A DNA stretch of 64,000 bases. Origin: Escherichia coli (GTDB lineage: Bacteria > Pseudomonadota > Gammaproteobacteria > Enterobacterales > Enterobacteriaceae). The DNA lies in NCBI RefSeq assembly GCF_003790525.1, contig NZ_CP033635.1; one strand, written 5' to 3'. The notes below the pieces were generated by a model. It did no database searches. It saw only the letters and a list, made by a program, of their open reading frames with translations, and was not told the DNA's origin. The translations under genes were made by a program, and so were the position numbers. Each line of letters opens with the position of its first letter. Positions within the stretch are counted from its first letter, which is position 1. This document shows positions 29,469-30,387 of the stretch, in pieces.

Positions 29469-30387
29469 GAATCTTGACCTTTTTTGCTGTTATCGCCACT
29501 CCCTGCCGTGGAAGTCAGCTTAGAACAATGTACTCCCCCAGGACGGCGTTTTGAAGGTCTGCAGAATAAGATTTTGCCAGAGTGGAAGGCTTGATTGTGC
29601 TGTTAATAACTTAATAATGGCAAAATAATGAGGTGTATATGCTTAATAATTAATGTTATGTAGTGAATTGTTCTGATTCTTAATTGTGAGTGTGGTTTTT
29701 TTATCTGTAAGATAATTGTTTGAAAATGCCTCGTTTAAGAATTCACTAATGAATCGTGATGATGATATTTCCGCATTACGGAGAGTTTAACAGCGTGATG
29801 ATTTCCGAGGTGTCGTAATGGGTGCAAGGTGTGAAACTATTGTTAAGCGGGATTAATGAATGAGGATGATGCTAATTAATTATTATTTAATATTCAAAAA
29901 GGTTTTGTTGTGCTTATTAATAATAGAAGATTACTTTGCCTAACATAACATAACTTTGCATCAGATAATTCGCAATGACCCTTATAAATAAAAGGTTTTT
30001 GGGGTAAAATGCTCGCATAAATGACGGATCCCTGCTCTTGATGCCGCCTCACCATTGCTGTTTGTACGTGTTCGCGTATGACCAGCGATGCTGCACGAGA
30101 GTGGAACAAGGACTCACATTTACATTTATACAAACACGCGCATGTCATAAATACAAAAGAGTGAGTAACTTAATAGATATGCGATTCCTGAAGATATATT
30201 CTGTGATCTACTTCAGGCATTATAACGGAACAATGTGAGTCGCTTTTTTAGTGCAACTCATATGCATTTTTACTTTCGTCCGGGTTCCGGATGAAACTGC
30301 CAGGGAGGCACATTACAAATGGAATTGCTTGTTTGTGTGTGCACAGCATTAACCAGCTCAGTATGAGCCGCCAGTAAGTGATAATAT

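Follow-up and report, generated by a model that had tools for sequence, protein, structure and literature searches.

The 919-bp gap that separates alaA from lrhA in this Escherichia coli chromosome is very probably an ancestral control region shared by the two divergent genes and organized into four functional zones. Positions given here are those of the window, the 64,000-nt stretch of DNA that was analyzed. Zone 1 (29469 to about 29580) would comprise the alaA leader and core promoter, as predicted from conservation. Zone 2 (about 29580-29965) is AT-rich and mostly drifting, with conserved islands that may bind proteins. Here Lrp, LrhA, CpxR, OmpR, and RcsB would set the transcription of lrhA and probably that of alaA as well; their binding somewhere in the spacer is published, and the exact sites are our inference. 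Zone 3 (29965-30016) would hold an activator-dependent lrhA promoter with a weak -35 element, and zone 4 (30017-30387) is a structured 371-nt leader that is published and is mapped here to these coordinates. On this leader, Hfq together with UhpU, ArcZ, and RprA pairs near the ribosome-binding site, repressing translation and destabilizing the mRNA. Zones 1 and 2 are predictions from conservation only. The gap is long because a long leader, 371 of the 919 bp or about 40%, adds to two promoter regions, and not because it conceals a gene.

The product of alaA is an alanine transaminase, and LrhA is a LysR-type master regulator of motility, RpoS, fimbriae, and, as recently shown, CRISPR-Cas. Because LrhA sits atop these decisions, the region that controls it is a genuine regulatory hub. 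The hub is already known and opens no new question; what is gained here is a set of base-level coordinates for the published elements in the strain studied. The initial annotation of this DNA had proposed an extended control region upstream of an autoregulated lrhA, and this reading is correct; regulation at the RNA level is also present.

The alaA coding sequence occupies 28251-29468 on the minus strand and lrhA 30388-31326 on the plus strand, and the gap between these divergent genes (29469-30387) has the identical length in K-12 MG1655, where it spans 2406642-2407560. Both the size and the coordinates given in the initial annotation are exact, and none of the other intergenic gaps in the 41 kb around it, 39 in all with this one, is as long. 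The runner-up, between lrhA and nuoA (31327-31955 of the window), measures 629-630 bp with a GC content of 0.39, and the third, between ackA and yfbV, 337 bp. RefSeq annotates nothing within 29469-30387. The GC content is 0.38 for the whole gap and 0.52 for the window, and drops to 0.31 in the central spacer (29569-29968, no strand), which is mostly fast-evolving and carries conserved islands. The end next to alaA (29469-29568, GC 0.49) and the lrhA leader (30017-30387, GC 0.42) are not especially AT-rich, and the earlier description of the gap as strongly AT-rich thus holds for its center but for neither end.

The strain is a non-K-12 E. coli, and its gap is 97% identical to that of MG1655 (26 differences in 919 bp). 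The gap sequence is matched in 5425 of 5426 complete E. coli genomes, 42 of the 5425 having no contiguous match of at least 80%. Divergence from K-12 reaches 5.2% in 29569-29968 versus 0.8-1.0% in the flanking blocks; the coding regions of alaA and lrhA diverge by 1.7-1.9%. The AT-rich core accounts for 21 substitutions, none of which touches a mapped element. We note a small hypervariable patch at 29645-29651 (TAATAATTAATG vs TTACATGCAATG in the K-12 comparison, five of seven bases changed) and a change at 29660 that turns TATAAC, the -10 element predicted for alaA by Shimada, into CATAAC. The annotation of the closest annotated relative (L086, strain Nord58; 14428-14884 and 37710-38168) lists yfbV as frameshifted and places an IS200/IS605 tnpA between nuoN and yfbM.

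Scanning a single genome for each species recovered 80 LrhA loci, 77 of which have alaA divergently upstream. In these 77 Enterobacteriaceae loci the gap ranges from 764 to 1140 bp, with a median of about 945 bp. The alaA-lrhA control region is syntenic in these 77 species, and it is ancestral and not acquired. The 77-species identity profile reveals four conserved islands, at 29469-29568, 29839-29894, 29965-30010, and 30295-30387, which coincide with the proposed functional zones and are counted in favor of the four-zone model. The shortest gap, 764 bp in an Enterobacter metagenome-assembled genome (MAG; L027), is missing most of the conserved 3' leader block from GGAATTG to CACAGC, apparently through deletion.

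On the alaA side, identity within the leader and promoter island (29469-29568) is 0.62-0.83 across the 77 species. The predicted core promoter on the minus strand (29527-29555) consists of TTCAAA (29555-29550) and TACATT (29532-29527) separated by 17 nt. This exact arrangement recurs in 67 of 78 Enterobacteriaceae spacers, 52-59 nt from the ATG, while the sequence between the hexamers varies. Conserved hexamers flanking a variable spacer are the signature of a sigma-70 promoter, and we infer that this one serves alaA. The predicted promoter implies an alaA leader of about 52 nt (29469-29521, minus strand) with the Shine-Dalgarno sequence AAGG at 29481-29478. Within the leader lies an almost invariant hairpin-capable element, ACUUCC-ACGGCA-GGGAGU (29498-29515, minus strand), whose core CTTCCAnGGCAGGnAG is found in 69 of 78 spacers at 25-31 nt from the ATG. 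The folding of the leader is not unusually stable (z = +1.4), and because the element is almost invariant it offers no covariation test; a function in the RNA and one in the DNA cannot be told apart from its sequence.

Upstream of the alaA promoter lies a CAAAATCTT block with an Lrp-like match: the conserved block CAAAATCTTATTCTG (29562-29576, minus strand), immediately upstream of the -35 hexamer, resembles the Lrp consensus with two mismatches in the motif scan, and [C/G][A/G]AAATCTT occurs in 50 of 78 spacers about 100 nt from the alaA ATG. Lrp may therefore occupy 29562-29576. The consensus scan also returned a second, distal promoter-like site for alaA, TTGCCA-18-CACAAT (29594-29623, minus strand), in a region where the number of promoter-like matches equals the chance expectation; the semi-conservation of its TTAACAGCACAAT is limited to Escherichia and Citrobacter.

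Several regulators of this spacer are documented. Lrp is a direct activator by ChIP, the OmpR ChIP signal goes up at the alaA-lrhA spacer, and both binding of CpxR to the lrhA promoter and lrhA autoregulation have been published. Shimada et al. 2014 draw attention to the "920 bp-long lrhA-alaA" spacer for its length, its many factors, and its several RNA polymerase peaks. The initial annotation was to stand or fall on whether transcription starts or binding proteins occur beyond the proximal lrhA promoter, and further promoters and binding proteins are indeed on record. Motif scans for CpxR, RcsAB, OmpR, IHF, Fis, CRP, Lrp, and H-NS gave either no match or matches at the chance level. Consensus matches for CpxR, RcsAB, OmpR, IHF, and Fis in the spacer did not rise above chance, and only two weak Lrp-like matches were retained, as leads. 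Alignment identifies a conserved upstream block on the plus strand (29839-29894) made up of ATTGTTAAG (29839-29847), ATTAATGAAT (29852-29861), and the 22-bp TAATTAATTATTATTTAATATT (29873-29894). It covers -180 to -120 relative to the lrhA transcription start, is nearly invariant from Escherichia to Enterobacter in an eight-species alignment, retains an identity of 0.5-0.67 over the 77 species, and is probably a regulator-binding site.

The lrhA core promoter (29965-30016, plus strand) is placed by conservation and by the mapped +1, and comprises the conserved GATAATTCGCAATGA, a weak -35 element TTATAA (29982-29987), and the -10 element TAAAAT (30005-30010), at the proper distance from the +1 at 30017. 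The pattern CTTATAAnTA...TAA[A/G]AT is recognizable in 31 of 78 spacers at 340-409 nt from the lrhA ATG, which indicates conservation of a long leader as such; Salmonella, too, retains the E. coli-type promoter. The initial annotation spoke of a proximal lrhA promoter. A promoter does exist, but it lies 371 nt from the start codon, and the published leader had been missed.

The lrhA 5' untranslated leader extends over 30017-30387 on the plus strand, its published transcription start mapping to A30017. Primer SM079 of Melamed et al. 2023 begins the lrhA fragment at ATAAATGACGGATCC, which corresponds to 30017 in the window and 2407012 in K-12, 371 nt before the ATG, and the same authors give the leader length as 371 nt. 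They report chimeras of UhpU, ArcZ, RprA, and McaS on the leader and repression of lrhA by UhpU, ArcZ, and RprA, with rescue by compensatory mutation for UhpU. In their lrhA-M1 gBlock, GCCGCGAGT replaces GCCGCCAGT. The mutated base is therefore C30372, which precedes the AUG by 16 nt; UhpU-M1 has the change complementary to it. The UhpU pairing site therefore maps to 30366-30381 (plus strand), with C30372 (-16) as the validated position. It is the sole sRNA site placed here, and its placement comes from the published mutants. [quoted passage not shown] The UhpU site CCAGTAAGTG is present in 9 of 78 spacers, in agreement with the published Escherichia-centered history of the UhpU-lrhA interaction. 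In the Citrobacter braakii group (L010, L012, and L013), the UhpU site some 16 nt ahead of lrhA naturally reads CGCGAGT. This is the C-to-G change of the engineered lrhA-M1, which abolishes UhpU repression.

Bilusic et al. 2014 recovered "ig-lrhA-alaA" RNAs of 150 and 350 nt by Hfq co-immunoprecipitation and showed that they are part of an lrhA mRNA of about 1.5 kb that is strongly up in an hfq mutant; they also describe a processed lrhA species of 1.25 kb. Our literature search returned nothing relevant on Rho-dependent attenuation or ribosome profiling in the lrhA leader. The leader diverges from K-12 by only 0.8% and is more stably folded than 99 of 100 shuffles (z = -2.95). Its first 260 nt are conserved within Escherichia only. 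The 3' part (30295-30387, plus strand) has an identity of 0.62-0.71 across the 77 species and forms the sRNA-pairing platform and ribosome-binding region; it contains GGAATTG, CACAGC, and AAGTGA, which keep fixed distances in 62-73 of 78 spacers.

Just upstream of this conserved part, the leader contains a covarying hairpin, CGUCCGG-GUU-CCGGAUG (30277-30293, plus strand; -111 to -95), with an AU-rich run ahead of it. Tested as a hand-specified helix on an alignment of 15 Escherichia, Salmonella, and Citrobacter sequences, it has 85% of cells paired and compensatory changes in five of its seven pairs. Helices slid along the alignment as controls are 26-44% paired, and no shuffle attains the observed covariation score. 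The hairpin is also part of the minimum-free-energy fold of the leader. RNAalifold yielded no consensus structure on broad alignments of either the lrhA or the alaA leader, because indels misalign the variable hairpin. The AU-rich run and hairpin would fit the processed 1.25-kb species.

The spacer is a recurrent target of insertions. Transposon or IS insertions in it alter expression in both E. coli and Serratia, the transposon insertions causing lrhA and, in Serratia, the orthologous pigU to be overexpressed. In K-12 W3110 (L088, NC_007779.1, 6313-8007), an IS1 that MG1655 lacks sits inside the lrhA leader, with a 9-bp target duplication at 30241-30249 (no strand; -147 to -139 from the lrhA AUG), and a Keio ΔacrA clone carries an IS5 at -137 (PMC12054083). 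The leader around 30241-30249 is an IS insertion hot spot. The W3110 element probably also explains why Shimada et al. 2014 list CTGCCA-16-TATGAT as the lrhA promoter. This string is absent from the MG1655 spacer and was dropped as a candidate; the same table assigns it to insA promoters of IS1, and the IS1 within the W3110 gap is its most likely source. In the natural isolate SBF22 (L087), the IS1 target duplication is at 29905-29913 (no strand), some 105 bp ahead of the lrhA transcription start, and the element separates the conserved AT block from the lrhA core promoter. Insertions of this kind in laboratory and natural strains (W3110, the Keio clone, and SBF22) can silently change lrhA-dependent phenotypes.

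Alternative explanations of the gap concern either its AT-rich core or its coding capacity. With about 400 bp at 31% GC, the core (29569-29968) has the AT content, at least about 65% over several hundred base pairs, that is used to recognize H-NS-silenced regions, and a filament of H-NS or StpA silencing lrhA, alaA, or both would also account for the raised expression of lrhA or pigU after spacer insertions. Outward-reading promoters or a severed leader explain the insertion effects equally well, and the locus is ancestral and syntenic in 77 species. Moreover, the spacer carries no H-NS mark in a genomic-SELEX table that flags 63 of 177 divergent spacers (36%), and the high-affinity TCGATAAATT-like motif has no match within two mismatches, where shuffles expect 1.86. 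A silencer of this type is therefore improbable, and H-NS binding to the spacer is unsupported. The nucleoid-protein part of the initial annotation is supported for Lrp (by ChIP), accompanied by OmpR, CpxR, and LrhA, and unsupported for H-NS. The core also contains the imperfect direct repeat noted earlier, formed by CGTGATGATGATATTTCCG (29755-29773) and CGTGATGATTTCCG (29794-29807) on the plus strand (29755-29807 overall). Together with a related GATGATG-containing copy at 29854-29877, a third partial copy (family D1) that overlaps a conserved island, the repeats could be read as iterated regulator-binding sites. A gapped repeat of this kind arises in 84 of 2000 dinucleotide shuffles (4%) and the observed count is reached in 21 of 2000 (1%), although the test is post hoc; 27% of such shuffles contain a 9-mer twice within 60 nt. 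The copies differ by 5 nt, not 3. The first has two substitutions in K-12, where the repeat is less perfect, and the second is unrecognizable in the alignment with E. albertii, Salmonella, and Citrobacter. The core word CGTGATGAT is found in 1 of 78 orthologous spacers, and the repeat occupies the least conserved stretch of the gap (identity 0.23-0.41 across the 77 species), which evolves at a near-neutral rate. We conclude that this E. coli-specific repeat, although present where it had been described, barely exceeds chance and appears to be a lineage-specific sequence accident with no sign of function; a role as iterated binding sites is extremely unlikely.

A gene hidden in the gap, for either an independent small RNA or a small protein, is scarcely more credible. 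The 150- and 350-nt Hfq-bound RNAs were first listed as an intergenic RNA, but they proved to be parts of the lrhA mRNA. No terminator-like site was found within 29469-30387, the only one detected lying inside alaA. The sole Rfam match, to STnc170 (29717-29792, minus strand), scores 20 bits against a threshold of 80 (E = 0.07) and is dismissed as fortuitous, since nothing in the Salmonella spacer matches. Among the 28 open reading frames of at least 10 codons, only one stays intact in all of Escherichia, Salmonella, and Citrobacter; it has a TTG start and runs antisense to the conserved alaA leader. A 28-codon frame at 30291-30377 is intact within Escherichia, but indels that are not multiples of three break it in Salmonella and Citrobacter, where its ATG and frame are lost, and the literature search gave no report of a small protein in the spacer. 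The statement that the gap holds no credible open reading frame, with which the empty RefSeq annotation agrees, is thus upheld, while the suggestion that an sRNA or small protein might be concealed here is not: the only small RNAs are Hfq-bound fragments of the lrhA leader, and no small frame is conserved. We also observed a mini-ORF, ATG AGC CGC CAG TAA (30364-30378), that ends 9 nt before the lrhA AUG, overlaps the UhpU site, and has no Shine-Dalgarno sequence; it reads ATG-ACC-CGC-CAG-TAA in Salmonella and C. koseri and has no ATG in Enterobacter/Kosakonia. If lrhA had an additional, distal promoter around 29680 in the AT-rich core, its leader would be about 700 nt long and most of the gap would be transcribed. 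A 712-nt lrhA leader reported in Salmonella dRNA-seq, the several peaks of RNA polymerase holoenzyme within the E. coli spacer, and the conserved gap length speak for such a promoter. The 712-nt leader implies a further distal promoter that the four-zone model does not place. The leader reported for E. coli is nevertheless 371 nt long, with a fitting mRNA of about 1.5 kb, the E. coli-type promoter is conserved in Salmonella too, and the core is near-neutrally evolving with no conserved promoter-like hexamers. We consider such a distal promoter possible but rather unlikely.

Within the four-zone control region favored here, we can speculate further, and only tentatively, about two elements. The AT-rich core, whose length is conserved and which holds the invariant islands at 29839-29894, may scaffold a higher-order nucleoprotein complex, most plausibly of Lrp oligomers, that couples alaA and lrhA to amino-acid status. 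Separately, the hairpin at 30277-30293 and its AU-rich run may form a conserved module for processing or Hfq loading that gives rise to the shorter lrhA mRNA species. Neither the scaffold nor the module is described at such resolution in the literature consulted. If correct, alanine synthesis through alaA and the control of motility and RpoS through lrhA would be coupled by one shared structure.

The closest comparison is the lrhA-alaA spacer and 5' untranslated region of K-12 (Lehnen 2002; Bilusic 2014; Shimada 2014; Melamed 2023), which is the same locus, with an essentially identical start site, UhpU site, and leader. The flhDC operon resembles lrhA in having a long leader targeted by several Hfq-dependent sRNAs, ArcZ among them, an upstream region that receives many regulators, and recurrent IS insertions that change motility. 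It differs in being a downstream target of LrhA, and IS elements there insert upstream of the promoter and activate it, whereas those of lrhA also fall inside the leader. The rpoS leader and the csgD-csgB spacer are similar as textbook examples of a long 5' untranslated region or divergent spacer at which numerous transcription factors and sRNAs converge. RprA and ArcZ also act on rpoS, but there the sRNAs activate translation by opening a hairpin, and on lrhA they repress. The csgD-csgB spacer is named alongside lrhA-alaA as a long multi-factor spacer; it is flagged as H-NS-bound, unlike lrhA-alaA. Finally, the hexA/pecT/pigU genes of Photorhabdus, Dickeya, and Serratia, genera outside the 77 loci, offer a likeness at the level of the gene pair: Serratia has the same pair (alaA-pigU), and insertions in its spacer likewise result in overexpression.
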